From assembly GCA_041915545.1 (NCBI GenBank), contig JAYSBF010000013.1:13390-77389 (forward strand): a stretch of 64,000 nucleotides of DNA. Reading direction: 5' to 3'. This DNA is from Magnetospirillum sp. GTDB taxonomy: Bacteria > Pseudomonadota > Alphaproteobacteria > Rhodospirillales > Magnetospirillaceae. Of the stretch, positions 33,485 to 57,050 are shown piece by piece. Below the pieces are notes generated by a model. It ran no database searches, had not been told where the DNA came from, and was given only the letters and a program-made list of their open reading frames with translations. Both the position numbers and the translations under genes were made by a program. Each line of letters opens with the position of its first letter. The first letter of the stretch is position 1.

Positions 33485-33489
33485 GGTCA

Positions 33490-35307: not shown

Positions 35308-35376
35308 GGGACTGTCGTTACGCTACCGAAGCGGATGGGGGAAGGGAAAGGCGGATTACCGCCCGGCCCCGGAGAG

Positions 35377-37684: not shown

Positions 37685-39427
37685 ATGCACGGTTCATCTC
37701 TTTGGGCGGGCGCGATGTCCGCCCTGACGCGCAAGGCGGGCCAAGTGGTCCGTGACCCTGTGCTGCGCCGGTTCCTGTTGGACCGTGCCTTGGGGCGGAT
37801 CGAAAATCCGGCGCCTTTCACCCCGCATTGCCCACCTTATCTGCCGACGCATCAGCCGCACGATTCCGTGCTGCCTATCCCCAGTCCAACCGCGTCGGCC
37901 CGTCCCCAGGGCGGAATTTCCGTGGATTTGCCGGGAATGCGGCTGGATGTGGACCCTGCCGATCCGGGGGCGGTCTTCGATCTGGATTTCGCTGATGGTG
38001 AAACCGCCGAAGCCTTGCACCGCTTCGCCTGGCTGCCCCTGACCCCCGACGTGTCCGCCGATTGGGTATTCGCCCTGTGGGATGCTTGGGTCCGCCGCTT
38101 TGTTCCGGCCGATCCCCGACAGGGGGGGGACGAGCGGGCGTGGAATGCCTATACCGCTGCCGAACGGGTGTGCAACATCCTGGATTACGGCCAACGGGTC
38201 GGCTGGCCCGGCGGCTGGGATCATTGTGCCGCCGTGTTGGCCCACCATGCCCCCCGAATCCGGGCCGGGTTGGAATATTATGGCGAGACGGCCACCCATA
38301 ATCATTTGGCCAATGACGGGCGTGGTTTGTACCGGCTGGGGGTCGCCTTGGGGTTGGCGGCCCCCCGTCAAACGGGTTTGGCCATTTTAACGCACGAGGC
38401 CGAGCGCCTGTTCCGCCCGTCGGGGATATTGCGGGAAGGGTCATCCCACTACCATCTTTTATATACAAGGAATTACGCTGATTGCTGGCTGGCCGCCCGT
38501 GCCGCCGGATTGACGGATGATGCCGGACGGCTGGAAGCCGTCGTGACCCGACTTTTGGCGGTTCTGCCCCATCTGGCTTTGCCCGGCGGGCTGCCTCTGG
38601 TGGGGGATATCTCGCCGGATTCGCCGCCCGATTATCTGGTCGGCCTGCTGCCGGGGCGACAGGATGCCGGTGGCTGGATGGCCCGGTTGGCGCCGGGGGA
38701 CCGGGCCGGTCTTTTGGCGCTGATGGCGACGGTACGTCCGGTCGGGCGGGATGTGCTGGCCGCCGATGGCTGGCTGCGGCTGGATCGTGGGCCATGGGCC
38801 GGAATGGTGCGGGCCGAACCGGCCGGATGGGTGTTCAGCCCCGGTCACGGGCACCAGGATTGGGGATCGCTGGTTCTGCATCACCGGGATCAGCCGGTTT
38901 TGGTGGATTGCGGACGCGGCGCCTATGGTGAAACCGGGCATGCGGCCTTATACCGGACGGGGCAGGTTCATAACGGCGTGACCGTGGATGGATGCGATCC
39001 TTATGCGGTCAACCGGCCTTATTATACCGATGCCTTTCGACGCAAGGCCGGTGGCGAGGCGGCGGCAGCGGATTGGACTGATGACGACGCCCGGATTTTG
39101 GCCGGAGGCTTCGCCCGGATCGGCGCCGGTGCCTGGCGGCGGCGGATTCAGGTGGAAGACGGACAGGTTGTCATCACTGATCGGATCGCGGGCCGGGGAC
39201 GGTTCACGGTCACCCGCCATTTTCATACGCCGCTGCCGGTCGTGATCAAGGATGACCATGTGGAGTTGGGCGGGCGGTTCCGCTTGCGTGCGCCGGGCGG
39301 GCGGATCATCATCGCCCCGGCCCGGCTGTGGGTGGCCTATGGCCGCGATGTGCCCGGCTGGGCCATCCGGGTGGAAAGCCCAACCCGGTTGCCTTGGGAT
39401 GCGACAACGGTGATCGAGGCTTTTTGA
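37685..39427 (+). CDS. Heparinase II/III-like protein
   Basis: NHL.ND, EGSSHYH, HGHQD.GS, HN; family frequent in polysaccharide loci. Confidence 0.8.
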   Translation: MHGSSLWAGAMSALTRKAGQVVRDPVLRRFLLDRALGRIENPAPFTPHCPPYLPTHQPHDSVLPIPSPTASARPQGGISVDLPGMRLDVDPADPGAVFDLDFADGETAEALHRFAWLPLTPDVSADWVFALWDAWVRRFVPADPRQGGDERAWNAYTAAERVCNILDYGQRVGWPGGWDHCAAVLAHHAPRIRAGLEYYGETATHNHLANDGRGLYRLGVALGLAAPRQTGLAILTHEAERLFRPSGILREGSSHYHLLYTRNYADCWLAARAAGLTDDAGRLEAVVTRLLAVLPHLALPGGLPLVGDISPDSPPDYLVGLLPGRQDAGGWMARLAPGDRAGLLALMATVRPVGRDVLAADGWLRLDRGPWAGMVRAEPAGWVFSPGHGHQDWGSLVLHHRDQPVLVDCGRGAYGETGHAALYRTGQVHNGVTVDGCDPYAVNRPYYTDAFRRKAGGEAAAADWTDDDARILAGGFARIGAGAWRRRIQVEDGQVVITDRIAGRGRFTVTRHFHTPLPVVIKDDHVELGGRFRLRAPGGRIIIAPARLWVAYGRDVPGWAIRVESPTRLPWDATTVIEAF

Positions 39428-41307
39428 TGTGTGGATTGGCCGGGCTGTTCGTGCCGCGCCTCGTGGCGCCGCCCGTGGCCGATATGGATGCCATGGTGCG
39501 GATCATGGCGCATCGTGGCCCCAATGGCACGGGAACGCATATTTCCCATGACCGCCGGTTTCAGGCCGGTTTCGCCCGGCTGGCCATCATTGATCTGGCC
39601 ACCAGCGGCCAGCCATTGGTGCATGATGGCGGCGCCCGTGTCTTCATGGGCAATGGCGAGATATACAATTACCGGGAATTGCGGGCAGGGCTGGAAAGCA
39701 AGGGGCATCGCTTTCTCACCCAGGGCGATATGGAACCGGCGTTGCGCGCCCATATGGATCTGGGGGATGATTTTGTCCATCAACTGAACGGCATGTATGC
39801 CCTGGCTTCGTATGACCGGGACAGTCACAGCCTGTTCCTGGTCCGGGACCGGTTGGGGATCAAACCGCTTTATTGGGCGCACACTGCTGGCGGTGCGATT
39901 GTCTTTGCTAGCGAAATCAAGGCGCTGTTCGCCAGCGGCCTGATTTCTCCATCGGTGCGGACCGACATGCTGCCCTCTTGGTTGCTGCATGGATATGTGC
40001 CTGCTCCCGACACGTTGTATCAGGGAATTCATAAATTGCCCCCCGGCCATTGGCTGCGGGTGGATGCCGACGGCACCGTTACCATCCGGCGCTATTGGCG
40101 TCCCGGACCCGCGGCTTGGGTTCCCGCGGATTTTCAACAAGGCCGCGATCATCTGCTGGATTTGTTGGGGCAATCGGTCAAATGGCAATTACACAGCGAT
40201 GTGCCCCTGGGCATCTTGCTATCGGGGGGCATTGATTCCGGGCTGATCGCCGCGCTTGCCGCCCAACACAGCCAAACGCCGCTGCACACCTATACCGTCC
40301 GTTTCAGCGGCGCCGCAGTGGATGAAAGCCCGCTGGCCCGATTGGTGGCCGAACGCTACGGCACCCGGCACAGCCAGTTGGATTTGGGCATGGACGATGT
40401 CGCCGGCTATTTGCCTGCCTTGGCCTGGCATTGCGACGAACCGCTTTTTGATGCCGCCTTGCTGCCCAATCATTTGATCAATGCCAGATTGGGCCAGGAT
40501 GTGCGGGTGGTGTTGAATGGCAGTGGCGGCGATGAGTTATTCGCGGGCTATGGCCGGTATTTTCCCCTGGCCGCCGAACAGCGCTGGCTGGCTCTGCCCC
40601 GGATAATGCGCCGCTGCCTGCGTCCTTTGATCGGTGCCCTATCCCCTCGGCGAGGATGGCAGTTGGGTCGGGCTGACGATCTGGATGCCGATCCCGGCGC
40701 CTATCTTGCCGGGCACACCACCTTGTTTCCGGCTCCGCTCCGGCGTCAATTGGGGTGGGGGGGGGCGGTTCAGGCAGCACAATCGGCTGCCTTTGCCGCG
40801 TTTCCCGGTCCGCGCCAATCGGCCATGTTGGCGGCCGATCTGGAAACCTATCTGCCCGAGGATTTGATGACCCTGCTGGACCGCACCACCATGGCATCCA
40901 GTGTGGAAGGCCGGGTGCCGTTTTTGGATCATCGCCTGGTCGAAGCGGCCCTGGCCCTGCCCCCGGACATGCGCACCCCCCAGGGGCGGCAAAAGGGGAT
41001 GGAACGGGCCATGGCCGCCGATTTTCTGCCCGATGTGGTGCTGACGGCGCCGAAACAGGGTTTCGCTTCGCCGGTGCCATCCTGGTTCGATGGTGCCCTG
41101 GGCCATATTGCCCGCCGGGTGTTGACCGGGAAAACAGCGCGGCGGCGCGGCTGGTTCGATCAAGATGGCCTGGCCGTCTTGTTGTCGCAGCCTCGCCGTC
41201 ATGCTTTCCCACTTTATGCGCTGACCATGTTGGAACTGACGGTGCGCACCCATGTGGATCGGCGCGACCCATGCCCCGCCGGACTTGAGGATTTGACCCA
41301 TGACTGA
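39427..41307 (+). CDS. Asparagine synthase-like glutamine amidotransferase (AsnB/WbpS type)
   Basis: N-terminal MCGLAG, HRGP, RLAIIDL, NGEIYNY, RDRLGIKPLY, LSGGIDS, RVPFLDH. Confidence 0.93.
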   Translation: MCGLAGLFVPRLVAPPVADMDAMVRIMAHRGPNGTGTHISHDRRFQAGFARLAIIDLATSGQPLVHDGGARVFMGNGEIYNYRELRAGLESKGHRFLTQGDMEPALRAHMDLGDDFVHQLNGMYALASYDRDSHSLFLVRDRLGIKPLYWAHTAGGAIVFASEIKALFASGLISPSVRTDMLPSWLLHGYVPAPDTLYQGIHKLPPGHWLRVDADGTVTIRRYWRPGPAAWVPADFQQGRDHLLDLLGQSVKWQLHSDVPLGILLSGGIDSGLIAALAAQHSQTPLHTYTVRFSGAAVDESPLARLVAERYGTRHSQLDLGMDDVAGYLPALAWHCDEPLFDAALLPNHLINARLGQDVRVVLNGSGGDELFAGYGRYFPLAAEQRWLALPRIMRRCLRPLIGALSPRRGWQLGRADDLDADPGAYLAGHTTLFPAPLRRQLGWGGAVQAAQSAAFAAFPGPRQSAMLAADLETYLPEDLMTLLDRTTMASSVEGRVPFLDHRLVEAALALPPDMRTPQGRQKGMERAMAADFLPDVVLTAPKQGFASPVPSWFDGALGHIARRVLTGKTARRRGWFDQDGLAVLLSQPRRHAFPLYALTMLELTVRTHVDRRDPCPAGLEDLTHD

Positions 41308-42256
41308 CGCCCTGCAAAACTTGGCCGATGTAAGCGTGATCATGCCGGCCTACAACAATCAGGACAGCGTGGGCCGGGCCTTGGCCAGCATCGCCGCGCA
41401 GACCTTGAAACCACGCGAAGTGATCGTGGTGGATGACGGTTCATCCGACGATACCATCGGCGCGGTGCGGGCGATGAAGGATCATATGAATGGTGTGACC
41501 CTGCGTTTGTTCCATCAGGAAAATAACGGCGCCGGGGCCGCCCGTAATCGGGCCGTGGTCGAAGCGCGGGGCGAATGGCTGGGATTTTTGGATGCCGATG
41601 ACCAATGGCTGCCCGGCAAATTGGAAAAAACATTGTGCCCCACCTTGGACCGCGGATTGGAGATGAGCGCCCATAATCTGGTGTCCGTGGCCCCCGATGG
41701 GCAGGAACGCATGATCTCAAGCCGTGCCCGCTGGCTGGGCAATCCGGCTGATCCGTATCGGAGGCTGTTTCTGGTTGGATTCATCTCCTCTTCCACCGTT
41801 TTGGTCCGTCGGCGGCTGGTGGTGCAGGTCGGGGGATTCGATGTGGGGCTGCGTTCGGCGCAGGATTACGAATTATGGCTGGCTTTGCTGGATCTGATCG
41901 GCCACCGGTTCGAAGTGTTCGCCGATCCGCTGCTGCGCTATACCCTGGCGCCCCAAGGCATCACCAGCGCGATCGACCGCAAGGTGTCGTGCTCTCTGGC
42001 GATTTTGAACCGCCATATGGGTGTGTTGAAACGCCATCCCGGTCCGATGATCAAATGGCTGGTCCTGCGTTTGCTCATCATTCATCTGGAAGCCGTGCAG
42101 GGGCATTGGCAGCGTGGTCAACGGGCCGCAGCCTTGGGGCAGATATGGCGATTCCTGCCCCGCCTTGGCGCCGTCTTGGCCCGCTTCCCCAAGGCCCGTG
42201 GCCAGCGTCCCGATTTTCTGGCCCATTTGCCCCCGGCGGCGGATATCGCGTTGTGA
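41300..42256 (+). CDS. Family 2 glycosyltransferase
   Basis: SVIMPAYN, VVDDGS, GAGAARN, FLDADD, DYELW. Confidence 0.93.
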   Translation: MTDALQNLADVSVIMPAYNNQDSVGRALASIAAQTLKPREVIVVDDGSSDDTIGAVRAMKDHMNGVTLRLFHQENNGAGAARNRAVVEARGEWLGFLDADDQWLPGKLEKTLCPTLDRGLEMSAHNLVSVAPDGQERMISSRARWLGNPADPYRRLFLVGFISSSTVLVRRRLVVQVGGFDVGLRSAQDYELWLALLDLIGHRFEVFADPLLRYTLAPQGITSAIDRKVSCSLAILNRHMGVLKRHPGPMIKWLVLRLLIIHLEAVQGHWQRGQRAAALGQIWRFLPRLGAVLARFPKARGQRPDFLAHLPPAADIAL

Positions 42257-43374
42257 TCACGCCCACTCCCCGCCCGGCACTGTGGCCCCTGCTGGCCTTG
42301 CGGTTTCTGGCGTCGCCATCCGGTCCCGGATTGGCCCGTCCGTTCCTGGATCTTCAGGCGGGGACGCCGGGCGGGCTGTGGCTGTCGCGTTCGGCGTGGT
42401 CCCTGGCCGCCTTGGCCGATGGTTTTCGCAGGCTGCACGGGCGCAAGCCGGTGGTGGCGCTGCCGGATTACATCTGTAACCAATCCCTGTGGCCGTTGCG
42501 TCAAGATCGCGCCGATCTGATGTTTTATCCGGTGGATGCCGCCACCTTGCATCCCTGTTGGGATGATTTCCACGGTCAGACGGCGGATATTTTTGTTCTG
42601 GTCCACTATTTCGGTCATGCCAATGATGGGGCGGGGGCCAGGGAATGGTGTGACCGGCATGGAGCTTGGCTGGTCGAGGATGCGGCCCATGTGCTGATGC
42701 CCAATGACGGCATTGGCCGCTGGGGTGATGCGGTGCTGTACAGTCCGCACAAACTGGTGGCCATTCCCGATGGGGCGGTCCTGGTGATCAATGACAGTCT
42801 GCGCCATGGGGAAAAGGCGGTGGCCCAGGCGGTGCTGGCATTAGGCGGGGCCCATCCTCATACCCAGCTCTGGCGGCTGAAACGGTTGATCCAGTCGGTC
42901 TTGCCCGCCGCCATTCAGCGGCGTTTCGGGGGTAAGGCCGCCCCTGATTTTAATTACGACCCAGAAACAGTGCCGATGCCGCAGGTTCCGGCACCATCCT
43001 TGGCCGGGGCTGCCTTGCTGGCTCGGGCGGATTTGCCCGGCATTGCCCGAATCCGCCGTGCCAATGCCCGGAGCCTGGGCCAGGCCGTGGCGGATTTGGC
43101 GCCGTGGCAGCCTCTTTTTCCCGTGGATGGGGGGGGCGTTCCTTATCGTCTGGCCATGCGCTGTCAAACACCCCAGATCGCCGGGGATATTTTCGCCCGG
43201 TTGCATGCGGCCGGTCTGCCGGTGGAAAGCTGGCCCGACCTTCCACCGGAAAGTGCCCCTCATTCCGCCGCACGGCAGTTGCGGATGACGCTTCTGCTGT
43301 TGCCCTGTCATCAGGATTTGACGGAAACAGAGCTGAGGCGGGCCTATGTCCGGGCCTTGGGGGGGCGGGCATGA
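42253..43374 (+). CDS. DegT/DnrJ/EryC1/StrS-like PLP-dependent aminotransferase
   Basis: PDYIC, VHYFG, EDAAH, YSPHKL (putative PLP lysine), LPCHQ; GTGA overlap. Confidence 0.78.
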   Translation: MITPTPRPALWPLLALRFLASPSGPGLARPFLDLQAGTPGGLWLSRSAWSLAALADGFRRLHGRKPVVALPDYICNQSLWPLRQDRADLMFYPVDAATLHPCWDDFHGQTADIFVLVHYFGHANDGAGAREWCDRHGAWLVEDAAHVLMPNDGIGRWGDAVLYSPHKLVAIPDGAVLVINDSLRHGEKAVAQAVLALGGAHPHTQLWRLKRLIQSVLPAAIQRRFGGKAAPDFNYDPETVPMPQVPAPSLAGAALLARADLPGIARIRRANARSLGQAVADLAPWQPLFPVDGGGVPYRLAMRCQTPQIAGDIFARLHAAGLPVESWPDLPPESAPHSAARQLRMTLLLLPCHQDLTETELRRAYVRALGGRA

Positions 43375-44309
43375 CCATCACCTTGGCCTGGGCCGACCGC
43401 CGGGATGAGTTTGACGCGCTATGTCCCACCGATGGGCAATCCAGCCTGCTGCAATGCTGGGCATGGGGCGAAGCCAAGCGCGAGGTGGAAGGCTGGCACC
43501 CCCGCCGGGCCATTTTGGCCCGGGGACCGGATGTGATCGGTGCGGTCCAGATCTTGGAAAAGCGTCTGGGGCCGGTGCGGGTGGCCCGGATCAACCGTGG
43601 ACCATTTTGGGTCGGCGCGCATGATCCTGATCCGGCGGTCAAAGCGGCGGCTTTGGCCTGTTTACGCGGCCAATGGCGGTGGTGGCGGGGCCGTGCCTTG
43701 CTGATCGCACCGGAATTGGCCGCCGATGCCGCCGCCGATCTGCCCGGTTTGGGGTTTCATCGCCGGGCGGGGGACGGTTGGTGTTCGGCCTGGGTGGATT
43801 TACGCCGCAGCGATGGGGATTTGCGGAAATCCCTGCACGGCAAATGGCGGAACATGTTGGTGAACGCGGAAAAAGCCGGGCTGGATCTGGATCTGATGGC
43901 GGGGCCGGATGCGGTGGATTGGCTGATGCCGCTATATCGGTCAGCCATGGAGGAAAAGGGATTTTCCGGGGCATCCCCGGCCATGATGCAGGCATTGGCC
44001 CGCCATGCGGCCCCGGATGACATGCTGGTTTACCGGGTCAGGTCGAACGGGGACGAGGCGGCGGCGCTGCTGATGGCCCGTCATGGTGTGTCGGTCACCT
44101 ATCTGGTGGGCTGCACCGGCCCGGCGGGACGGGCATCGCGGGCAACCTATCTGGCATTGTGGCGGGCTATGCTGGATTTGCGGGATCGGGGGTGCCATTG
44201 GCTGGATTTGGGGGGGATCGACGATCAATCCACCCCGGGCGTGGCCGCGTTCAAACGCGGGGTCAAGGGCAGCGAATACCGGTTGGCGGGGGAATTCTGG
44301 TCCCTGTAG
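43371..44309 (+). CDS. FemAB/GNAT-fold aminoacyl- or acyltransferase
   Basis: LLQ..AWG..K, KWRN....AEK, LDLGG, GVAAFKRG. Confidence 0.8.
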   Translation: MTITLAWADRRDEFDALCPTDGQSSLLQCWAWGEAKREVEGWHPRRAILARGPDVIGAVQILEKRLGPVRVARINRGPFWVGAHDPDPAVKAAALACLRGQWRWWRGRALLIAPELAADAAADLPGLGFHRRAGDGWCSAWVDLRRSDGDLRKSLHGKWRNMLVNAEKAGLDLDLMAGPDAVDWLMPLYRSAMEEKGFSGASPAMMQALARHAAPDDMLVYRVRSNGDEAAALLMARHGVSVTYLVGCTGPAGRASRATYLALWRAMLDLRDRGCHWLDLGGIDDQSTPGVAAFKRGVKGSEYRLAGEFWSL

Positions 44310-44320
44310 GGAGGCCGGGC

Positions 44321-45055
44321 ATGGATGATGTCATCGTTTTGGATCTCGGTGGACGTTCCGTATCTGTAATGGTTATCCATTCCGCCCGCGCACGCCGATT
44401 GGCTTTGCGCCTGGACCCGGCCAAGGGGCCGGTGGTGACCGTTCCCCCGCGGGTGTCGCCGTCCCAGACCATGGATTTCCTGATCCGGCACCGCATTTGG
44501 CTGGCCGAACGTCTGGCCCGCCTGCCGGGGCCGGTTCGCCTGATGCCGGGGCAGCGGGTGCCGCTGCTGGGCGTTTCTCATCTGATCGTTCATTGCCCCG
44601 ATGCGCGGCGCGGAGTCTGGCTGGATTGCGGCGAGATCCGGGTGTCCGGGGTGGTGGAGCATGTGGAACGGCGGGTCCGTGATTTTTTGATGACGCAGGC
44701 CCGGCAGATCATTCCGCTCAAGGCCCGGTCCCTGGCCGGGATGGCCGGTAGGAACGTGGCGCGGATCACGGTCAAGGACACCAAAAGCCGGTGGGGCAGT
44801 TGCTCATCCCAGGGTAATCTGGCCTTTTCCTGGCGTCTGGTGTTGGCCCCTGAAACAGTGCTGGATTATGTGGTGGCACATGAAGTGTCCCACTTGTTTC
44901 AGATGAATCACTCGGCGGCGTTTTGGCGGATGGTCGGGACATTGTGCCCCCATTGGCAAGAAAGCCGCCGCTGGCTGAAGCTGAATGGGCATAGTCTGCA
45001 TGGTTACGGATTGGATGCTTTGCAATCATTTGGATTGCCGTCGACTATGGCTTGA
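44321..45055 (+). CDS. M48/DUF45 (YgjP/SprT-like) metallopeptidase-family protein
   Basis: KSRWGSCS, YVVAHEVSH, NHS..FW. Confidence 0.88.
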   Translation: MDDVIVLDLGGRSVSVMVIHSARARRLALRLDPAKGPVVTVPPRVSPSQTMDFLIRHRIWLAERLARLPGPVRLMPGQRVPLLGVSHLIVHCPDARRGVWLDCGEIRVSGVVEHVERRVRDFLMTQARQIIPLKARSLAGMAGRNVARITVKDTKSRWGSCSSQGNLAFSWRLVLAPETVLDYVVAHEVSHLFQMNHSAAFWRMVGTLCPHWQESRRWLKLNGHSLHGYGLDALQSFGLPSTMA

Positions 45056-45102
45056 ACGACAAAAACCTGCTATCACCCATCCTCCCATAGCCTCGTAGAG
45101 CC

Positions 45103-48100
45103 TTGATTTCTGCCGTGTACAGCAAAAACCCGATAGCCATCATCGGCCAAGCATGCCGTTTCCCCGGTGGGGGAACGTCCCCGGATCGTTTTTGGTCCCT
45201 TTTGATGGAAGGGCGCGACGCCGTCAGCGAAATTCCCGATGATCGTTGGGATAAACGCCATTTTTTTCATCCCGATGCGGATGAAGCCGGGCGGGCCTAT
45301 ACCTTCCGGGCGGGGACATTGGGGGATGTGGCCGGGTTCGATGCCGCGTTTTTCGGGATTTCCCCGCGCGAGGCGGAACAGATGGACCCGCAGCAACGCC
45401 TGCTGCTGGAGCTGACTTGGGAAGCCATGGAAAGTGCCGGGCTGACCGCCGAACGGCTGGCCGGCAGCGACACCGCCGTCTATGTGGGGGTTTCCAGCAC
45501 CGATTATGCCGATTATCGCCAGGGTGATCCGTCTGGCGCCAATGCCTATTTCATGCTGGGATCGACGCTGTCCATCGTCGCCAACCGGCTGTCTTACGTG
45601 TTCGATCTGCACGGGCCGTCCATGGCGGTGGATACGGCCTGTTCCTCCAGCCTGGTGGCCTTGCATGAAGCCGTGGGGGCCATCCGTTCCGGTCGCTGTG
45701 CCCAGGCGGTGGTGGGCGGCGTTCATCTTTTGCTCAGCCCCTTTCCGTTCGTGGGCTTTTCCAAGGCGTCCATGCTGTCATCGTATGGCCGTTGCCGTGC
45801 TTTCGACCGCATCGCCAAGGGGTATGTGCGGGGCGAAGGCGGCGGCGCCCTGATCCTGAAGCCGTTGGCTCAGGCCGAACGTGACGGCGATCCGATTTTG
45901 GCGGTGATCGAAGGCGTGGGGCTGAACAGCGATGGCCGGACCCAGGGCATCGCCTTGCCGTCATCCGAACGGCAAGAGGAATTGCTGCGCAAGGTCTATG
46001 CCGATTGCGGGGCCAATCCCAGCGATCTGGTTTATTTCGAAGCGCATGGGACCGGCACCGCCGTGGGCGACCCGGCGGAAACCGGGGCCATTGGCCGCGC
46101 TTTGTCCCAGCGCCGTCCGTCCGGGTTGCCCTTGCCCATCGGTTCGGTGAAATCCAATATCGGCCATCTGGAGCCGGCATCGGGCATGGCCGGGCTGATC
46201 AAGGCCATTGGCGTCCTGCGTCACGGGGTGATTCCGCCCACCTTGCATGTGGACGAACCCAATCCCGACATTGATTTCGACGGGCTGAATCTGGCGGTCG
46301 CCACCGCCGCCCGCCCGGTGGCCCGTGGGGATCGCCCCGCCCTGGTGGGGGTCAATTCTTTTGGTTTTGGCGGCGCCAACGCCCATGTGGTGTTGCGCGA
46401 ATATCGTGTCGATACAGAAACGGTTCCCGCCTCTGCCGCGCCTGCGGTTCTGCCGCCCCTGCCGATTTCCGCTCGGTCGCCCGCGGCGCTGTCCGCCATG
46501 GCGGGTGATCTGGCCGATTTGCTGGCTGGCAAGACGGCGCCGTCCGTGGCCGATCTGGCCTGGACGCTGTGCCATAAGCGGACCCATCATTCCCAACGCC
46601 TGATGGTGCGGGCCGCCACGGCGACGGCGCTGATCGACGATTTGCGCCAATTGGCTGACGGCAAATCCCCGTCGGGCTGCATTCGGAACAAAACCGTTTC
46701 CGCCAATCCCCGCGTGGGCTTTCTTTTTTCCGGCAATGGCGCCCAATGGCTGGGCATGGGTGTGCAGCTTCTGGCCGAGGATGCGGCCTTTCGGGCCGAG
46801 GTCGAACGGATTGACGCGCTGATCCAATCCCAGGCCGGTTGGTCGGTGATCGCTGAATTGCAGGCCCCGGCGGAAACCAGCCGCATCGACGATACCCGTT
46901 TTTCCCAGCCGATGCTGTTCGCGGTTCAGGCGGGTCTGGTGGCGGCCCTGGCCGCGCGCGGTCTGGGGGCCGATGCCGTGGCCGGGCACAGCGTCGGCGA
47001 AGTCATCGCCGCCTATGCCGCCGGGATTCTGACGTTGGAACAGGCGGTTCATGTGATCGTCTGCCGCAGTGCTGTCCAGGGGGAAACCCGCGGCATGGGC
47101 CGGATGGCCGCCGTGGCCTTGGGGGCCCAGGCGGCGCGGGATGCGATTGCCGCCTATGACGGTGCCATTGAAGTGGCGGCGGTCAACAGCCCCAGCGCGG
47201 TCACCTTGTCGGGACGCGAAGATGCGTTGCTGGCGCTCAAGGACGAATTGGGCGCCAAGGGGGTGGATTTCCGCCTTCTCAATCTGGACTATGCCTTCCA
47301 CAACCGGGTGCTGGACCCATTCCAAAGCCGCATGCTGGACAGTCTGGGGGCGGTGACCGCCGCCGAAGGACGGCTGCGCTTTTATTCCTCGGTCACCGGG
47401 GCGGTGATCGGCGGCCCCCATCTGGACAGCCAATATTGGTGGGAAAACGTGCGCCGTCCGGTGCTGTTCCAGCAGGCGGTGGAAGCCATGCTGGCCGATG
47501 GCATCGACGTTCTGGTGGAAATCAGCCCCCATCCCATCATTCATTCTTATCTGCGCCATATTTTCCGCAGCCTGGACGCCCAAGCCCAGGCATTGGGATC
47601 GGTCAACCGGCAAAATGCCGGCGCGCACCGTCTGGACCGGGTTGTCGATGAAGCCTGGACCCTGGGGGCAGACTTGGCCTGGGATCGGGTGGTCCCGGCG
47701 GGCCGTCAAGTGGATCTGCCGACCTATCCCTGGCAGCGTGAACGGTTCTGGTGTCCGCCGACGCCCGAATCCCGTGGTCCGCTGTATCACCGGTGGGAAG
47801 CCCGGTTCCTGGGGGCGCGGGTGGCGCCGTCCTTGCCGATTTGGGAATCGACCATCGACACGGGCACCTTGCCGTTCCTGGCCGACCATCAGGTCGGGGG
47901 GCTGGCGGTATTTCCGGCGGCCGGGTTCGTGGAAATGGCGCTTCAGGCATCGCAATGCCTGTGGGGCGATGGACAGCATGATGTGGAGCAACTGGAAATC
48001 CGCCGTCCGCTGACCCTGGACCGGACCAAGGTGGTCCGCTTCCTGTGGGGCGAGGACCAAGGCACGTTCCAGATTTCCAGTCGCCCGCGCATGACCGATG

Positions 48101-51100
48101 ACGGCTGGACGGTTCACGCGGTTGGGCGGCTGACCCAATCCGCCGCGACACAGCCGTCGGTTCCGCCCCAATTGGCGGCGGATGGCGCCGAAATCGCCGC
48201 CGCTGATCATTACGCCATGGCGGATCGGATCGGCTTGGCCTATGGACCCGCCTTCCAGACCGTGACCCGGACCAGGGTGCATGGCGCGGTGGCCGTGGCG
48301 GATCTGCGTTTTCCCACGGCCGATGAGGGGGGGGATGGCTATCTGCTGCCGCCGGGATTGTTCGATGGCTGCTTGCAGGTGGTGTTCGACCTGCTGAAGG
48401 ACCACATTCAATCCGCCAGCCAGCCCCATGCCTTCCTGCCGGTGCAGATTGGGCGGTTGCTGCTGCATGGCGATGCCAGCCGGATCAGCCGGTGTCATGT
48501 GCGGTTGGATCGGATGTCGCGGCGTTCGTTGGTGGCCAGCATCTGGCTGACCGATCAGGATGGTGCGGTCATCGCCGAAGCCCGGTCGTGCCGGTTCCAG
48601 CGGATGGATATGGGCAAGGCGCTGGGGGCGCCATCTCAGTACGAATTCGAAACTATTCCGCTATCCGACCGTTCACCCCAATCCCATTGGCCCCATGCGG
48701 CCATGCCCATATGGCCGACAGGGGCGGATATCGGCCCGGATATCGGCCTGGATGCCATCGCCGCCGCTTTCTGCGCCGAAGCGTTGGCGGCGACGCCGAA
48801 GCCCGCGCCGGAATGGAATGATGTGGCCCGTCTGGCCGGTGTTTTGGCCGCAGGCCATGATTCTGATCAGACCGCCCATGATCTGTGGCGCTCGGCCTTG
48901 AATGCCCATCCCGGCCATCTGGCGGAACTGACGCTGTTGGGCAATCTGGGCCTGCATCTGGGGCGGGCCTTGGCCGGGGATCTGGTGGCGTCCAGTTTGC
49001 TTCCCGCCAACTCGACCTTGGACCATCTGCTGGATGCGTCGCCCCTGGTGGCGGTGGGGCATGACGCCATTGCCGCCGCCTTGGCTCAATTGGTCAGCCA
49101 TTGGCCGGACAGCCAACGCCTGCGGGTGATCGAGGTGGGGGGCGGCGCCCCGGATCTGACCGCCCGGCTGATGGCACTGCTGCCTGCCGGTCGTTACGAT
49201 TACACCATCGCCGCCGCCGATGCGGCCCTGGCCCTGACGGCGGAAGCCGGTTTGGGGCATCAGCATCCCGATCATTCGGTGGTGACCTTTGATGCGGCCC
49301 GGCCCTTGGCCGATCAGGAACAATTGGCTGTCGGCAGCCATGATCTGGTGATCGCGGTCAACGCCCTGGGCTATTGGCCCGATGCGTCCACCGCCCTGGC
49401 TGCCTTGGCAAGCCTGGGACGGGGTGGCGCCAGGGTGTTGTCCTGCGCACCGGCTGCGGGCGCTTGGCTGGACTTGGCCGCAGCGGTCCATGCGGTGGCG
49501 GGAAAGGCATTTCCGCTGCGTCCGTTGCCCAGTGATGCTTTCGGCGGCTTTGACACGGCATCCGCCGTCACCGTGGCGGGAACGGCCCTGTTGGCGGCCA
49601 GTTTGCCGGCGGCGGCCCTGGCCGCGAATACCGGTCCCTTGCTGGCCGAGGATGCCAGGCCATGGCTGATCCTGGCGGGTGGAACCGATGCGGAAATGGC
49701 CTTGGCCGATGTGGTGGCCGATCGGCTGGGGGCGGCGCTGATCGTCTTGCCGGAAGGTGAAGGCGACGACGAAACAGCCTTGCGCATTCCCGCCGATTCC
49801 CCGGCGGCCTGGGCCGATTTCCTGGCGACCTTGGTTGAGGCCGGCAGTGAACCGGCTGGCTTGATCCATCTTTGGGGTCTGGCTGAACCTCGCCAGGGCC
49901 GTGACGGCGATCTGTCGCATCAGAACCGCCGATGCTGGAGCACCCTGGCCTTTGCCCAGGCAACCACCCAAGTGAGCCTAAGCCAGTCGCCGCATCTGGT
50001 GACGGTCACCCGTGGCGCCTTGGATGGCGAGATTTCCCAGGCGCCGCTTTGGGGCCTGGCTCGCGTGCTTGGCAATGAATTCCCGCAACTGTCCGTCCGG
50101 CGGATTGATTTGGACCCGATGGCCTTTGCCGGTCTGGGGGCTGCCCTGGCGGCGGAAATCGCCGCCCCCGATGCTCAGGACGAAGTCCGGTTGGGGTTGG
50201 ATTGGCGCCAGGGCCTGCGATTGCGCAAACGGGCGGTGAAGCCGGTCGGCGCTTCGGCATCGGCTCCTGCCGCCTTGGCCCGGACCTTGTCTTTTGGCGC
50301 CGGTTCGCTGGATCATCTGGCATGGGTGGATGCGTCCCGGCGGGCGCCGGGCGCGGGCGAGGTGGAAATCAGAATCCGGGCATCGGGTTTGAACTTCCGC
50401 GATGTCATGCTGGCCTTGGGCGTTCTGCCGGATGAAGCGGTGGAAAACGGATTTGCCGGGGCCAATGTGGGGATGGAAGCCGCCGGGACCGTGGTGGCGG
50501 TCGGGGCCGGTGTGGACCGCTTGTCCGTGGGCGATGATGTCCTGTTCTTTGCCCCGGCTTGTTTTGCCAGCCATGTGACCACCAAGGTGACGGCGGTGGC
50601 CCGCAAGCCGGCCAGTCTGGGCTTTGCCGAGGCGGCCACCATTCCCACCGCTTTTTTCACCATCTATTACGCCCTGTCCGAATTGGCCCGTTTGCGGGCT
50701 GGGGAACGGGTGCTGATTCATGGTGCGGCCGGTGGTGTGGGTTTGGCCGCCATTCAATATGCCCGCCATGTGGGGGCGGAAATCTTCGCCACCGCCGGCA
50801 GCCCGGAAAAGCGGGCCGTGGTGGAATTGGCCGGGGTGCCCCGCGATCATATCCTGGATTCCCGCTCTTTGGCTTTTGCCGATCAGGTCATGACCTTGAC
50901 CCAGGGCCAGGGTGTGGATGTGGTGCTGAATTCCCTGGCGGGCGAAGCCATTCATAAAAGTCTGGGGCTCCTGCGGCCCTTTGGCCGTTTCCTGGAATTG
51001 GGAAAGCGGGACTTTTTCGCCAATACGCCATTGGGATTGCGGCCATTCCGCAACAACATTTCCTATTTCGGCATTGATGCCGACCAGTTGATGGCGGTCC

Positions 51101-52509
51101 TGCCCGATCTGGCCGGGCGTCTGTTCGCCCAGATGATGGAGTTGTTCGAACAGGGGATTTTCCATCCGCTGCCCTATCGGGTTTTCCCCCAGGACCGCAT
51201 CGTCGATGCCTTCCGTCACATGCAGCAATCCCGCCATATGGGCAAGATCATCGTCGCCGATGATGGCGTTGATGATCTGGTGGCATCCGTTCCGGCGGAT
51301 GGCGGTCAATCCCTGACCCTGGACCCCGATGGTGCTTATCTGGTCACGGGGGGGCTGGGCGGTTTTGGTTTGGCCACGGCCCAATGGCTGGCGGAACGCG
51401 GTGCCCGGCATCTGGTTCTGGCCAGTCGGCGGGGTAAGGCCGATGACGACGCCCAGGCCGTGCTGGATGCCCTGGCGGCGCAAGGGGTCGAGATTCAGGC
51501 GCGGGCCTGCGACGTGGGGGATGCCGCCCAGGTGGATGAACTGATCCAATCCATTGCCGCCCGTCGGCCGTTAAAGGGGATCATTCATGCCGCGGCGGTC
51601 TTTGATGACGGCATTGCCGCCACCATGACCCATGACCAGTTCAACCGCGTCCTGTCGCCCAAGCTGGAAGGCGGCTGGCACCTGCATCGCGCCAGTCTGG
51701 GCCAGCCCTTGGATCTGTTCGTGCTGTATTCATCGGTCACCACCATCTTGGGCAATCCCGGCCAAGCGAATTACGTGGCCGGTAACATGGCGTTGGAAGC
51801 CTTGGCCCACCATCGGCGGGCGCGGTCCCTGCCTGCCCTGGCGGTGGGTTGGGGGGCGATCGCCGATGCCGGGTACTTGACCCGCCATACCGATGTGCGC
51901 GATACGCTGTCCAAGCGTATGGGGGTGGATGCCTTGACCGCCCGCACGGCGCTGGACAGTCTGGGCGCCTTGCTGGCTGGCGATCACCCGCCGGTGGTTT
52001 GCGTGGCCGAGGTGGATTGGCGGACCATGGCGGCCTTGCCTGCCCTGAAATCGCCGCGCTTCGCCCTGGTGGCCAGCGGTGGACGGACGGAAAGCAGCGG
52101 CGAAGCTTTTGATCTGGATAAGCTTCTGGCGGGATTGAGCCCGCAGGAAGTGACCCAGGTGTTGACCGAATTGGTGGCCGAACAGGTGGGCACCGTGCTG
52201 CGCATTCCGGCGGAACGGTTGGATGTCACCCAATCCGTCTTTGAAATGGGGATGGATTCGCTGATGGCCATGGAATTGCGCTCAGCCATCGAAGAACGGT
52301 TCGGCGTGCAATTGCCTGCCATGGCCTTGTCCGAGGGAGCGTCCATCACTCGTCTGGCGGAACGCATCCGGGCACATCTGATGGGGGATGCCAAGGCGGA
52401 TGCCGCCCAGGACGATGTCACCGCCTTGCTGGCCCGTCATGCGGAAGGTGCGGATAAGGCTGTCGTGGCTCAGGGCGTGGCCGCCTTGGCCGGGACGGCA
52501 GATAAATAA
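45103..52509 (+). CDS. Single-module type I PKS: KS-AT-DH-(degenerate MT)-ER-KR-ACP (RkpA/WcbR-like)
   Basis: KS DTACSSS/HGTGT/KSNIGH; AT GHSVG/YAFH; DH HQVGGLAVFP; ER IHGAAGGVG; KR GGLGGFG/GQANY; ACP GMDSL; no thioesterase. Confidence 0.95.
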   Translation: MISAVYSKNPIAIIGQACRFPGGGTSPDRFWSLLMEGRDAVSEIPDDRWDKRHFFHPDADEAGRAYTFRAGTLGDVAGFDAAFFGISPREAEQMDPQQRLLLELTWEAMESAGLTAERLAGSDTAVYVGVSSTDYADYRQGDPSGANAYFMLGSTLSIVANRLSYVFDLHGPSMAVDTACSSSLVALHEAVGAIRSGRCAQAVVGGVHLLLSPFPFVGFSKASMLSSYGRCRAFDRIAKGYVRGEGGGALILKPLAQAERDGDPILAVIEGVGLNSDGRTQGIALPSSERQEELLRKVYADCGANPSDLVYFEAHGTGTAVGDPAETGAIGRALSQRRPSGLPLPIGSVKSNIGHLEPASGMAGLIKAIGVLRHGVIPPTLHVDEPNPDIDFDGLNLAVATAARPVARGDRPALVGVNSFGFGGANAHVVLREYRVDTETVPASAAPAVLPPLPISARSPAALSAMAGDLADLLAGKTAPSVADLAWTLCHKRTHHSQRLMVRAATATALIDDLRQLADGKSPSGCIRNKTVSANPRVGFLFSGNGAQWLGMGVQLLAEDAAFRAEVERIDALIQSQAGWSVIAELQAPAETSRIDDTRFSQPMLFAVQAGLVAALAARGLGADAVAGHSVGEVIAAYAAGILTLEQAVHVIVCRSAVQGETRGMGRMAAVALGAQAARDAIAAYDGAIEVAAVNSPSAVTLSGREDALLALKDELGAKGVDFRLLNLDYAFHNRVLDPFQSRMLDSLGAVTAAEGRLRFYSSVTGAVIGGPHLDSQYWWENVRRPVLFQQAVEAMLADGIDVLVEISPHPIIHSYLRHIFRSLDAQAQALGSVNRQNAGAHRLDRVVDEAWTLGADLAWDRVVPAGRQVDLPTYPWQRERFWCPPTPESRGPLYHRWEARFLGARVAPSLPIWESTIDTGTLPFLADHQVGGLAVFPAAGFVEMALQASQCLWGDGQHDVEQLEIRRPLTLDRTKVVRFLWGEDQGTFQISSRPRMTDDGWTVHAVGRLTQSAATQPSVPPQLAADGAEIAAADHYAMADRIGLAYGPAFQTVTRTRVHGAVAVADLRFPTADEGGDGYLLPPGLFDGCLQVVFDLLKDHIQSASQPHAFLPVQIGRLLLHGDASRISRCHVRLDRMSRRSLVASIWLTDQDGAVIAEARSCRFQRMDMGKALGAPSQYEFETIPLSDRSPQSHWPHAAMPIWPTGADIGPDIGLDAIAAAFCAEALAATPKPAPEWNDVARLAGVLAAGHDSDQTAHDLWRSALNAHPGHLAELTLLGNLGLHLGRALAGDLVASSLLPANSTLDHLLDASPLVAVGHDAIAAALAQLVSHWPDSQRLRVIEVGGGAPDLTARLMALLPAGRYDYTIAAADAALALTAEAGLGHQHPDHSVVTFDAARPLADQEQLAVGSHDLVIAVNALGYWPDASTALAALASLGRGGARVLSCAPAAGAWLDLAAAVHAVAGKAFPLRPLPSDAFGGFDTASAVTVAGTALLAASLPAAALAANTGPLLAEDARPWLILAGGTDAEMALADVVADRLGAALIVLPEGEGDDETALRIPADSPAAWADFLATLVEAGSEPAGLIHLWGLAEPRQGRDGDLSHQNRRCWSTLAFAQATTQVSLSQSPHLVTVTRGALDGEISQAPLWGLARVLGNEFPQLSVRRIDLDPMAFAGLGAALAAEIAAPDAQDEVRLGLDWRQGLRLRKRAVKPVGASASAPAALARTLSFGAGSLDHLAWVDASRRAPGAGEVEIRIRASGLNFRDVMLALGVLPDEAVENGFAGANVGMEAAGTVVAVGAGVDRLSVGDDVLFFAPACFASHVTTKVTAVARKPASLGFAEAATIPTAFFTIYYALSELARLRAGERVLIHGAAGGVGLAAIQYARHVGAEIFATAGSPEKRAVVELAGVPRDHILDSRSLAFADQVMTLTQGQGVDVVLNSLAGEAIHKSLGLLRPFGRFLELGKRDFFANTPLGLRPFRNNISYFGIDADQLMAVLPDLAGRLFAQMMELFEQGIFHPLPYRVFPQDRIVDAFRHMQQSRHMGKIIVADDGVDDLVASVPADGGQSLTLDPDGAYLVTGGLGGFGLATAQWLAERGARHLVLASRRGKADDDAQAVLDALAAQGVEIQARACDVGDAAQVDELIQSIAARRPLKGIIHAAAVFDDGIAATMTHDQFNRVLSPKLEGGWHLHRASLGQPLDLFVLYSSVTTILGNPGQANYVAGNMALEALAHHRRARSLPALAVGWGAIADAGYLTRHTDVRDTLSKRMGVDALTARTALDSLGALLAGDHPPVVCVAEVDWRTMAALPALKSPRFALVASGGRTESSGEAFDLDKLLAGLSPQEVTQVLTELVAEQVGTVLRIPAERLDVTQSVFEMGMDSLMAMELRSAIEERFGVQLPAMALSEGASITRLAERIRAHLMGDAKADAAQDDVTALLARHAEGADKAVVAQGVAALAGTADK

Positions 52510-52564
52510 TTAGGCCACCCGTGGCTGTCTCGTCGGGTGTTGGCATAAGAGAGAATGGGGTGGG

Positions 52565-53968
52565 ATGAGCGAACATCAGAAAGATCACCGGTCCTTATCG
52601 GCCCAGGAAAAACAGGACCTGCTGAAAGCGATCCTGAAAAAGCGCAAGGGTGATCAAAAGCCGACCGATCAGCCCGCCATCACGCCAGCGGCCGGTGCGG
52701 CTTTGTCAGCGGATGCGGAACCGGCGGAAGAGACGTGGCGGATTGAAAAATTTCCCGCCTATCAGCAGGTACTGGTCCAGCGGTCGGTGGCCCGGCATCT
52801 GGGGGTGGAAAGCCCGTTTTTCACGGTGCATGACGGTGTCAGCGGGGCTACCACCCAGGTGGGCAACCGGACCTTGATCAATTACGCCACCTATAATTAC
52901 CTGGGTTTAAATGGCGATGCGCGGGTGACCAAGGCGGCCAAGGACGCCATCGACATCTATGGCGTATCCGCTTCGGCCAGCCGGGTGGTGTCGGGGGAAC
53001 GCCCGCCCCACCGTCAATTGGAAAAGGCGCTGGCCGCCTTGCATGGCGTCGATGACGCCATTGCCTATGTGTCCGGTCATGCGGCGAATGTCAGCACGAT
53101 CGGCTGCCTGATGGGACCGCGCGATTTGATCGTGCATGACCGGCTGGCGCATAATTCCATGCTGCAGGGGGCGTTGCTGTCCGGGGCGGCGCGTCTGCCT
53201 TTTTCTCATAATGACATGGATGCGCTGGATGACATCCTGACCCGCAATCGGCGCAATTACGAAAAGGTGCTGATCGCGGTCGAGGGTATCTATAGCATGG
53301 ATGGCGATATGTGCCCGCTGGACCGGCTGGTCGAGTTGAAGCACCGTCATCATGCGTTGCTGATGGTGGATGAAGCCCATTCCCTGGGGGTATTGGGGGC
53401 GACCGGGCGCGGCGTGGGGGAACAGTTCGGGGTCAATGGCGCCGATGTGGATTTGTGGATGGGCACCCTGTCCAAGACCTTGTCGGGCTGCGGCGGCTAT
53501 ATCGCCGGGTCGGCGGCCTTGGTGGAATTGCTGAAATTCACCTCGCCGGGTTTCGTTTACTCGGTGGGCATGCCCCCGGCCATCGCCGCCGCCGCCGTCG
53601 CATCGCTGGAATGCATGCTGGCGGAACCGTGGCGGGTGGAAAAACTGCGCCATAACGGACGTCTGTTCCTGGACACCGCCCGTGCCGCCGGGTTGGATAC
53701 CGGCCTGTCCCAGGGCTTTAACATTATTCCCGTGATCACCGGGCGGTCGGTGCTTGCGGTCAAGCTGTCCAACACTTTGCTTGATCTGGGGATCAATGCG
53801 GCCCCCATCATTTATCCGGCGGTGGATGAACGGGCGGCCCGACTGCGCTTTTTTCTGTCCAGCGAACATAGTGACGACCAGATCCGGCAGACGGTGCAGG
53901 TGGCGGCACGGGAATTGGAACGTCTGCGCCAAGAAAGCGATGCGCCCGATGCTCCTGCCGATGAATAG
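52565..53968 (+). CDS. AONS/serine-palmitoyltransferase-family PLP enzyme (RkpG/WcbT-like)
   Basis: YNYLGL, SMDGD, VDEAHS, GTLSKT (PLP lysine), RLRFF; ~55-aa N-terminal extension. Confidence 0.92.
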   Translation: MSEHQKDHRSLSAQEKQDLLKAILKKRKGDQKPTDQPAITPAAGAALSADAEPAEETWRIEKFPAYQQVLVQRSVARHLGVESPFFTVHDGVSGATTQVGNRTLINYATYNYLGLNGDARVTKAAKDAIDIYGVSASASRVVSGERPPHRQLEKALAALHGVDDAIAYVSGHAANVSTIGCLMGPRDLIVHDRLAHNSMLQGALLSGAARLPFSHNDMDALDDILTRNRRNYEKVLIAVEGIYSMDGDMCPLDRLVELKHRHHALLMVDEAHSLGVLGATGRGVGEQFGVNGADVDLWMGTLSKTLSGCGGYIAGSAALVELLKFTSPGFVYSVGMPPAIAAAAVASLECMLAEPWRVEKLRHNGRLFLDTARAAGLDTGLSQGFNIIPVITGRSVLAVKLSNTLLDLGINAAPIIYPAVDERAARLRFFLSSEHSDDQIRQTVQVAARELERLRQESDAPDAPADE

Positions 53969-54044: not shown

Positions 54045-55055
54045 ATGACAGTCAGCGAGGATAGGCCCATGACCAAACGCAATGTGGTGCTGGTTCAAGA
54101 TGGCGCCATCGACGAATTGGCGTCGGTGCTGTTATTGGCGTCCATGCCGGACATATCCATCAAGGCCATTGAAATCCTGAATGCCGATTGTCTGGCGGCT
54201 CCGACATTCCAGGCGACGGTACGGCTGCTGAAATTGATCGGGCGCGGCGATATTCCGGTCAGCATCTCGCCAGCGCGGGGGTGGAATCCGTTCCCGTGGG
54301 AATACCGGCAATACGCCATGATGGTCAATCTGTTGCCCATCGTTAATCAGTATCAGGCGGATGTGCCGGTTCCGGTGCCGCCCTTCACGGTCAGTTTGGC
54401 CGAAATTCTGAAGCGGGTGCGGGCCGAAGACCCCGGCACCCCCCTGGTGATCCTGTGCCTGGGGCCGTTGACCAGCGTGGCGGATGCCTTGCGGGATTTA
54501 TCCCGCGATGCCTATGACGAATTGGTCTGGATGGGCGGTGTCTATACCCCCCCGGATCAGGGCGATGTTTTACCCGTGGGCAATATCGACACCGGCATCG
54601 CCCCTGGGGCCAACCCCAATGCGGAATGGAATGTATACTGGGACCCTTATGCGGCGGATCGGGTGCTGAAAGCACAATTGCCCTTCCGCATGTTTCCGCT
54701 GAACGTCACCAATGATGTCTTGCTGACCCCCCAGATCATCCGGGAATATTTTTTGCCGCAAAGCCGGAAACACCCGATTCTGGACCTGATGGCCCAGATG
54801 TATTCCATGGTGGCATTCCAGGCCGGGTTCAGTTTTTGGGACACGGCAACGACCGCTTATTTGGGGGCGCCGCAATTATATGGCTTCAAGGACTATCCAA
54901 TTCGTGTGGATATCTCTCCCGATCCGGCAGCGCAAGGCACACTGAGTGTGGACGCCAAAAGCGGATCGCGGGTGACCATGGCCACCCGGATCGACGTGAA
55001 CGGATTTTATACCTATCTGGTGGATTCGCTGAAATCACTGCCGGTGAAGGTGTGA
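54045..55055 (+). CDS. Nucleoside hydrolase (IUNH family, purine-specific-like)
   Basis: DGAIDE, LGPLT, MGG, AEWNVYWDP, FWD. Confidence 0.88.
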   Translation: MTVSEDRPMTKRNVVLVQDGAIDELASVLLLASMPDISIKAIEILNADCLAAPTFQATVRLLKLIGRGDIPVSISPARGWNPFPWEYRQYAMMVNLLPIVNQYQADVPVPVPPFTVSLAEILKRVRAEDPGTPLVILCLGPLTSVADALRDLSRDAYDELVWMGGVYTPPDQGDVLPVGNIDTGIAPGANPNAEWNVYWDPYAADRVLKAQLPFRMFPLNVTNDVLLTPQIIREYFLPQSRKHPILDLMAQMYSMVAFQAGFSFWDTATTAYLGAPQLYGFKDYPIRVDISPDPAAQGTLSVDAKSGSRVTMATRIDVNGFYTYLVDSLKSLPVKV

Positions 55056-55171
55056 TCGTGGTTCCACGAATTTCCCATTGGTGGAACGTGTCAGCGGTCG
55101 TTGAGGTCGCAGCCAAGTGAGCGGGCACATGGACCATCCTGCGTTCCACCGAACGCAGGATGGTTGGGGGA

Positions 55172-56191: not shown

Positions 56192-56333
56192 GCCTCTGGG
56201 TCCTCGACCGATTGTTTGTCCGGCATTGATATAAAACAAACGCGAACGTCGCGCCTTAGTATGCCCGAGGTGTGGGGCCAGGAACAAGTGCCCGCGTTAG
56301 GGATTAAGCAACCTCTTTTCCCGCCGGGTCATT

Positions 56334-56948: not shown

Positions 56949-56995
56949 GGTGGGGGCGGCGCCGTGATCGGATTATGGCGGATGATCATGACAAT

Positions 56996-57027
56996 AAAAA
57001 GACCGGCCACCGTCAAGGTGGCCGGTC
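56996..57027 (-). terminator. Intrinsic terminator of fabI
   Basis: GACCGGCCACC-gtcaa-GGTGGCCGGTC; T5 follows on the minus strand. Confidence 0.85.
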
Positions 57028-57050
57028 GACATTTCTTATCGCGGTGCGGA

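Follow-up and report, generated by a model that had tools for sequence, protein, structure and literature searches.

A co-oriented 16-kb gene run in a Magnetospirillum genome is probably three juxtaposed units, one of them an RkpA/RkpG-type lipid module

Gene order and distribution across genomes

Does a closely spaced, co-oriented run of biosynthetic genes encode a single pathway? The question is raised by eight genes at 37685-53968 of a 64,000-nucleotide stretch of Magnetospirillum sp. DNA (the window), where five genes of glycan-tailoring type are followed by a metallopeptidase gene (ygjP), a type I polyketide synthase (PKS) gene and a gene of the alpha-oxoamine synthase (AONS) family. A first-pass annotation had joined the glycan genes and the PKS-AONS pair into one pathway to a "different glycolipid". 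Our analysis favours another explanation: the 16 kb probably consists of three juxtaposed units, namely a glycan cassette (Unit A, 37685-44309), the core gene ygjP (Unit B, 44321-45055) and a lipid module of the RkpA/RkpG type (Unit C, 45103-53968), with the partners of the module dispersed over the genome. The window is part of contig C13 of a metagenome-assembled genome (MAG; designated G000) of 3.8 Mb in 119 contigs, 90% complete, and was compared with 40 relatives, 400 genomes sampled across the class, metagenome contigs and a PLSDB record.

Pfam and NCBIfam scans placed all eight genes on the forward strand (Table 1). The co-orientation and the gene families proposed by the first-pass annotation were borne out, except that its "M48" gene encodes a YgjP-like metallopeptidase. 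The junctions are exactly as it had described them: the first four read TGATG, ATGACTGA, GTGA and ATGA, and the next three gaps measure 11, 47 and 55 nt. Its statement that the gaps hold no obvious terminator also stands, none of the 34 terminator-like sites found by a consensus scan lying inside a gap of the run. Promoter-like sites were uninformative (4 seen against 5.0 expected by chance), and none was found between ygjP and the PKS gene. GC content and third-position GC content (GC3) of the cassette and of the PKS-AONS pair resemble the rest of the genome, and composition is therefore uninformative on horizontal transfer.

Shared strand, overlapping or short junctions and gaps without a terminator-like site all speak for one operon-encoded pathway, in which a sphingoid-like base would be glycosylated by the upstream enzymes to yield a new glycolipid independent of KpsC/S-type machinery. 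The phylogenetic profiles speak against it. A close AONS orthologue with an upstream PKS gene occurs in three of the 40 relatives (G014 of the same genus, 76% identity; G040, 59%; G039, 57%), and neither the heparinase-like nor the FemAB-like gene of the cassette is found in these three. Homologues of the heparinase-like protein (39-50% identity) are present in 19 relatives, none of them with a close PKS-AONS pair, and FemAB-like homologues in 16. A heparinase-like gene is missing from each of the 13 further sampled genomes that have a PKS-AONS orthologue, and the cassette is found without PKS-AONS at eight other loci (G011, G021, G006 and five metagenome contigs). Among everything sampled, cassette and PKS adjoin only in this genome. 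The KpsS-like and GNAT acetyltransferase genes behave differently: among the 40 relatives they occur in exactly the three genomes with the close pair (Fisher p=1e-4). In the class sample, 10 of 400 genomes were AONS-positive; a KpsS-like gene is present in 8 of these 10 compared with 16 of the 390 others (p=2e-9), and a heparinase-like gene in none of the 10.

The two halves do not co-occur in other genomes, an outcome that the first-pass annotation had itself listed as refuting, and its reading as a single novel glycolipid pathway is not supported. A core gene between the halves, and KpsS-like, sulfatase, GNAT and short-chain dehydrogenase/reductase (SDR) genes elsewhere in the genome, point the same way. 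We therefore regard a single pathway as quite unlikely. Orthology and phylogenetic profiles together identify the SDR, the GNAT, the sulfatase/LtaS-family protein and the KpsS-like protein, and not Unit A, as the predicted working partners of the PKS-AONS pair.

The gene between the halves belongs to neither. A ygjP gene was found in 39 of the 41 genomes searched, mostly in single copy and with 40-59% identity, and none of the other PKS-AONS or cassette loci examined contains it. It is a single-copy core housekeeping gene, and its membership in the cassette or in the PKS-AONS module was rejected on these grounds. Its neighbours in the five relatives fetched match no gene of the window, and those of three relatives, mapped onto G000, fall on other contigs (C6 and C9). 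The gene has apparently been relocated: in G015 and G016 it lies beside homologues of a block at 52-58 kb of C6 and of one C9 gene. In G000 (C6:56642-59173) this block is directly followed by an opposite-strand gene, and ygjP stands instead between cassette and PKS.

One relative does provide a precedent for a glycosylated product. In G034, a distant PKS-AONS pair (AONS 51% identical) is directly preceded by a GT21 gene, of the ceramide-glucosyltransferase family, which makes glycosylated products of such pairs plausible. This locus (L020:9128-20000 and L021:1-6414, on contig C11 of G034) also has a gene for a 451-aa protein without Pfam match upstream of the pair. Genes for a FabF-like ketosynthase, an SDR, a LolA-like protein and an MMPL/cNMP-binding transporter lie nearby on the other strand, and G034 has no match to the KpsS-like protein encoded on contig C22 of our genome. 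We consider the G034 locus a better candidate than the window for a glycosylated sphingoid-like lipid.

The PKS-AONS pair and its dispersed partners

The PKS carries the motifs DPQQR, DTACSS, HGTGT, GHSVGE and YAFH, the dehydratase motif HxxxGxxxxP and the enoylreductase motif GGVG. The AONS gene starts 55 nt downstream, and its product has the pyridoxal phosphate (PLP) lysine motif TLSK. A PKS gene lies directly upstream in 7 of 7 close AONS homologues on long contigs (56-71% identity). At four of the seven loci a sulfatase-family gene stands beside the pair, and three of these four also carry Capsule_synth (KpsS-like) and GNAT genes, two of them with an SDR gene as well; the other close loci contain Poly_export, ABC2_membrane, GDP-sugar or glycosyltransferase genes. 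An earlier impression that PKS-AONS pairing is rare was discarded: it came from a contig scan seeded with peptide patterns, which returned mostly cyanobacterial AONS genes next to fatty acyl-AMP ligase (FAAL) and acyl carrier protein (ACP) genes, and was overturned by a search for protein homologues. In an IQ-TREE phylogeny, the window AONS groups with those of Dongia, locus L107 and G014 (support 100/100); KpsS and sulfatase genes are present in two of these three, and the contig of G014, the third, is 4.7 kb long. A wider clade of 23 sequences (100/99) unites RkpG, the wcb-type enzymes, a cyanobacterial group and the window AONS; the three housekeeping paralogues of the enzyme in G000 lie outside it. 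Three loci that combine PKS, AONS, KpsS and sulfatase genes share a further protein, about 490 aa long and without Pfam match (L107:13929-15392, L108:15053-16528, L112:11370-12842); tblastn found no homologue of it in this genome. Elsewhere, G000 has two further type I PKS-like loci, one whose frames of 2195 and 756 aa contain two KS domains (C48:14583-20512) and one with a 5029-aa frame (C19:22387-23778).

[quoted passage not shown] In alpha- and beta-proteobacteria, WcbR/RkpA PKS genes accompany genes that make and export capsules, with the KS motifs DPQQR and HGTGT intact (PMC3908369), as they are in the window PKS. Our reference for S. meliloti was region L116 (637869-667080) of PLSDB record CP090106.1 (3.72 Mb, labelled pSymB). 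The record contains no rkp names, and the labels RkpA, RkpG, RkpH, RkpI, RkpJ and RkpU are our own assignments from its product names and from its gene order, which matches the published organisation of rkp-1. As rkp-1 is a chromosomal region, adjoining secD and kpsF, the plasmid label of the record is apparently wrong, and the 520-aa RkpI frame is missing from its gene table.

The best matches of the S. meliloti proteins in this genome are the PKS, AONS, KpsS-like, sulfatase-family and outer-membrane polysaccharide export (OPX) genes, each a reciprocal best match: the PKS with RkpA (37-41% identity), the AONS with RkpG (53%), the KpsS-like protein of C22 with RkpJ (38%), the sulfatase-family protein of C22 with RkpI (28%) and the OPX protein of contig C102 with RkpU (33%). 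RkpG scores 409 bits against the window AONS and 165 bits against the next-best paralogue. As in rkp-1 (rkpU-rkpA-rkpG-rkpH-rkpI-rkpJ-kpsF, for the K-antigen capsule), a PKS of domain order KS-AT-DH-ER-KR-ACP is followed by an AONS-family gene. The set is contiguous in S. meliloti, whereas here it occupies at least three places (45103-53968, 827-2281 and C22), with export genes on C102; moreover, the rkp-1 stretch lists no GNAT, a partner found both here and in the closest loci.

The wcb-type loci of Burkholderiales (WcbQ/R/S/T; Caballeronia insecticola p2 and Cupriavidus basilensis) likewise combine PKS and AONS (AONS about 54-62% identical) with a sulfatase/LtaS-family gene, there inside an ABC-transporter capsule locus. 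The order on C. insecticola p2 is SDR, LtaS, PKS, LpxC, AONS, OPX, ABC permease, ABC ATPase and chain-length determinant (PCP). Unlike these loci, the window has no LpxC-like gene between PKS and AONS and no export genes nearby. Judged by its sequence, the pair is an RkpA/RkpG (WcbR/WcbT)-type lipid module of ABC-transporter-type capsules, a kind already known, and the first-pass annotation of a thioesterase-less PKS with an AONS of this kind agrees with both the reciprocal matches and the homologues in canonical capsule loci.

One set of partners is the SDR and GNAT genes at 827-2281 of the window, which are the counterparts of adjoining genes in L107 and L112; in G039 and G040 the GNAT gene lies directly beside the AONS gene. 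The SDR is a likely partner of the PKS-AONS pair and could reduce a 3-keto group. These two genes are near parAB, gidA and mnmE, which suggests a location near the replication origin. On C22 (31284-34153), a Capsule_synth (KpsS-like) gene adjoins, on the same strand, a gene for a sulfatase/LtaS-family membrane protein. Their products are 70% and 61% identical to those encoded beside the L107 PKS-AONS pair, a level similar to that of the window PKS (60%) and AONS (70%) with their L107 counterparts. A 6.9-kb contig, C102, carries on the export side a second Capsule_synth gene and an OPX (Poly_export/SLBB) gene, along with a GT4 and GDP-sugar genes. The first-pass annotation had recognised no KpsC/KpsS, sulfatase or ABC export genes; this is correct inside 37685-53968 but not for the genome, which has Capsule_synth, sulfatase-family and outer-membrane export genes elsewhere (KpsM/T/E were outside the searches). 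The rkp-1-like set is thus split over at least three loci (827-2281, C22:31284-34153 and C102:112-3672), each with housekeeping flanks.

Such dispersal could mean that the pair is a decaying or orphan remnant, possibly non-functional: its partners sit at three separate loci and the close orthologous set is kept in only 3 of 40 relatives. Several observations argue against this, and we hold it to be very unlikely. The PKS (2468 aa) and AONS (467 aa) frames are intact with their catalytic motifs, all partner genes are intact, GC and GC3 are genome-like, and PKS-AONS and KpsS-like genes are dispersed also in G238, G074 and G085.

A pathway can be proposed for the RkpA/RkpG-type module. The PKS would iteratively build a reduced acyl chain on its own ACP, as its domains suggest, and the AONS would release the chain by decarboxylative condensation with a small amino acid, giving a 2-amino-3-keto lipid; release from a carrier protein is suggested by AONS-family chemistry and by ACP-AONS fusions or FAAL-ACP neighbours in cyanobacterial relatives. 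[quoted passage not shown] The product would be a capsule lipid carrier or anchor, as proposed for rkp-1. The AONS reaches none of the NCBIfam equivalog cut-offs (339 vs 426 for BioF and 224-276 vs 500-670 for the Spt models), and its structure matches are equally to bacterial serine palmitoyltransferases (217.7 bits) and to a Thermus AONS/KBL enzyme (214 bits); its amino acid therefore cannot be named.

The match to serine palmitoyltransferases invites a ceramide-type alternative, in which the AONS is such an enzyme and the FemAB/Acetyltransf_6-like protein of the cassette a ceramide-synthase-like N-acyltransferase, the product being a (glyco)sphingolipid. Bacterial ceramide synthase is an enzyme of the GNAT superfamily. 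The scores on the Spt equivalogs lie far below their cut-offs, however, and the tree places the AONS with RkpG and the wcb-type enzymes. In addition, the FemAB-like gene follows the cassette into genomes without PKS-AONS and does not co-vary with the AONS, and no CerR-type reductase was found in the cluster (no reference CerR sequence was compared). We consider this alternative highly improbable. The FemAB-like protein itself was rejected as a ceramide synthase on its phylogenetic profile, no reference sequence being compared.

AONS homologues about 50% identical to that of the window are found in filamentous cyanobacteria (Arthrospira, Lyngbya, Moorena, Planktothrix and many others) and belong to the same 100/99 clade. 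In Arthrospira, Lyngbya and Moorena (L026:7563-12928, L037:7424-13261 and L046:7393-13463) they form a cassette of FAAL, ACP, AONS and B12-binding radical SAM/DUF4070 genes. As in the window, the acyl donor would be bound to a carrier protein, and ACP and AONS form one fused protein in Moorena. The chain is loaded by the ligase rather than built by a PKS, and the genes checked around the AONS in these three loci include no capsule gene. This cassette is probably an undescribed aminolipid pathway.

The glycan cassette

The products of two cassette genes retain catalytic features. The AsnB-type protein begins with MCG from the start at 39427, so that the Cys2 nucleophile is present, its ATG overlapping the preceding stop codon (TGATG), and it scores 407.7 on TIGR01536 (NCBIfam cut-off 267). 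The DegT-like protein has weak PDB matches to aminotransferases, and its residues D143, H146 and S164-P-H-K167 (the SxHK lysine being K167) are invariant in four homologues. With this lysine and Cys2 kept, the cassette looks functional. The most likely role of Unit A is to attach a single sugar residue and modify it; glycosyl transfer, carboxylate amidation, or amination followed by N-(amino)acylation would be examples of such chemistry.

G011 and G021 have all five genes side by side in the window's order (44-66% identity), and G006 has them split 3 + 2. A metagenome scan with the FemAB-like protein returned the five-gene order in four contigs and the asnB, GT2, degT-like and femAB-like genes in a fifth; no match to the PKS, AONS or ygjP was found anywhere in these five loci. 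Across the cassette loci, AsnB is 60-64% and GT2 61-66% identical, and the heparinase-like gene stands in the same order as in the window in L097, L101 and L118-L121. In G011 the cassette is flanked by genes for a sugar dehydratase, a DegT protein, an Acyl_transf_3 protein, a methyltransferase and radical-SAM proteins, a setting typical of surface polysaccharides, and in relatives generally it belongs to loci of that kind. The cassette thus appears to be a portable, translationally coupled and widespread glycan-tailoring unit that is independent of the PKS-AONS pair.

Two kinds of enzyme in Unit A, the AsnB-type amidotransferase and the FemAB-like protein, are also known from the exopolysaccharide enzymes of XrtA/PEP-CTERM systems, likewise in a polysaccharide context. 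The scores lie far below the curated cut-offs: AsnB reaches 431 on TIGR03108 (cut-off 816.9) and the FemAB-like protein 25.2 on TIGR03019 (cut-off 260.35), and neither is a member of the respective equivalog.

Coupling of the units, neighbouring genes and implications

Several points weigh against three units with an amino-lipid module. The Kdo polymer of S. meliloti 1021 reportedly has a phosphoglycerol-hydroxy fatty acid anchor and not an amino lipid, so that the amino-lipid step stays a proposal, and the literature found gives no determined lipid product for any RkpA/RkpG or WcbR/WcbT pair, a matter that concerns the family as a whole rather than this window. The match of the SDR to RkpH of S. 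meliloti is weak (27%, not reciprocal), and the SDR is not a clear orthologue of that protein. The genome is an incomplete MAG. Finally, co-orientation, overlaps, short gaps and the lack of a terminator-like site could allow one transcript that couples Units A and C, and as PKS-AONS pairs habitually adjoin variable polysaccharide genes, Unit A could be the variable region of this strain.

On balance, functional coupling of cassette and PKS-AONS in this strain seems unlikely. A specific form of it, to which we give a small chance, is that the cassette was recruited beside rkpA/rkpG, is co-transcribed with them and decorates the same capsule, carried on a PKS-derived sphingoid-like anchor. PKS, AONS, SDR and GNAT would together produce this anchor, a 2-acylamido-3-hydroxy long-chain lipid, which the LtaS-like enzyme would phospho-activate and the KpsS-like protein would prime. 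The capsule terminus of E. coli is lyso-phosphatidylglycerol-Kdo, and a sphingoid-like capsule anchor, if true, would be chemically unlike it.

Both flanks of the eight-gene run are housekeeping genes: BipA, PfkB, CysZ and a small lipoprotein-like open reading frame (ORF) upstream, and a nucleoside hydrolase, an EF-hand protein, FabI, a Cys/Met PLP enzyme, FolE and TrkH downstream. The lipoprotein-like ORF lies between cysZ and the cassette and ends 15 nt ahead of the heparinase-like gene. Pfam gave no match for it, nor did tblastn against the relatives' cassette loci, and it is placed outside the cassette. The nucleoside hydrolase gene was found beside the AONS gene in none of the other loci examined; it is a neighbour and not a member of the PKS-AONS module. 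Four long forward-strand frames (31952-33505, 33370-35385, 55160-56461 and 56406-57977) were rejected: they have no Pfam match, overlap minus-strand frames and are probably not genes. The overlapping minus-strand frames mostly have Pfam matches (GGDEF, BipA, EF-hand, FabI); 55172-56287 has none.

Table 1. Features of the window, with coordinates in nucleotides of the 64,000-nt stretch
Feature	Coordinates	Strand	Basis and remarks
SDR	827..1627	-	Pfam adh_short; 57% identity to L107 SDR; adjoins GNAT as in L107 and L112
GNAT acetyltransferase	1670..2281	-	Pfam Acetyltransf_1; 62% identity to L107 GNAT
Small lipoprotein-like ORF (MRLTHLAVFAPLALLAAC...), 137 aa	37256..37669	+	Sequence reading; lipoprotein-type signal (…LALLAAC)
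Heparinase II/III-like protein, cassette gene 1	37685..39427	+	Pfam Hepar_II_III_C, 62.9 bits; without signal peptide
AsnB-type glutamine amidotransferase, cassette gene 2	39427..41307	+	Pfam Asn_synthase + GATase_7
Family 2 glycosyltransferase (GT2), cassette gene 3	41300..42256	+	Pfam Glycos_transf_2, 105.9 bits
Divergent DegT-like PLP protein, cassette gene 4	42253..43374	+	Weak Pfam DegT match, 25.5 bits
FemAB/Acetyltransf_6-like acyl- or aminoacyl-transferase, cassette gene 5	43371..44309	+	Pfam Acetyltransf_6 50.6 bits, FemAB 41.3 bits
YgjP-like metallopeptidase	44321..45055	+	Pfam YgjP-like, 166.5 bits
Single-module type I PKS, KS-AT-DH-ER-KR-ACP, no thioesterase, 2468 aa	45103..52509	+	Pfam domain order
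Alpha-oxoamine synthase (AONS/SPT family), 467 aa	52565..53968	+	Pfam Aminotran_1_2; N-terminal extension of about 95 aa
Inosine-uridine nucleoside hydrolase	54045..55055	+	Pfam IU_nuc_hydro; starts 76 nt after AONS

A tidy, co-oriented and closely spaced biosynthetic run can be a chance neighbourhood, and phylogenetic profiles split this one in three. For the RkpA/RkpG family, the conserved partners in our sample include a GNAT, encoded beside the module in L107, L108, L112, G039 and G040. Partners of the GNAT and SDR families would fit a route to a sphingoid-like lipid by keto-reduction plus N-acylation. The arrangement in this genome further suggests that an RkpA/RkpG module can work from dispersed loci.

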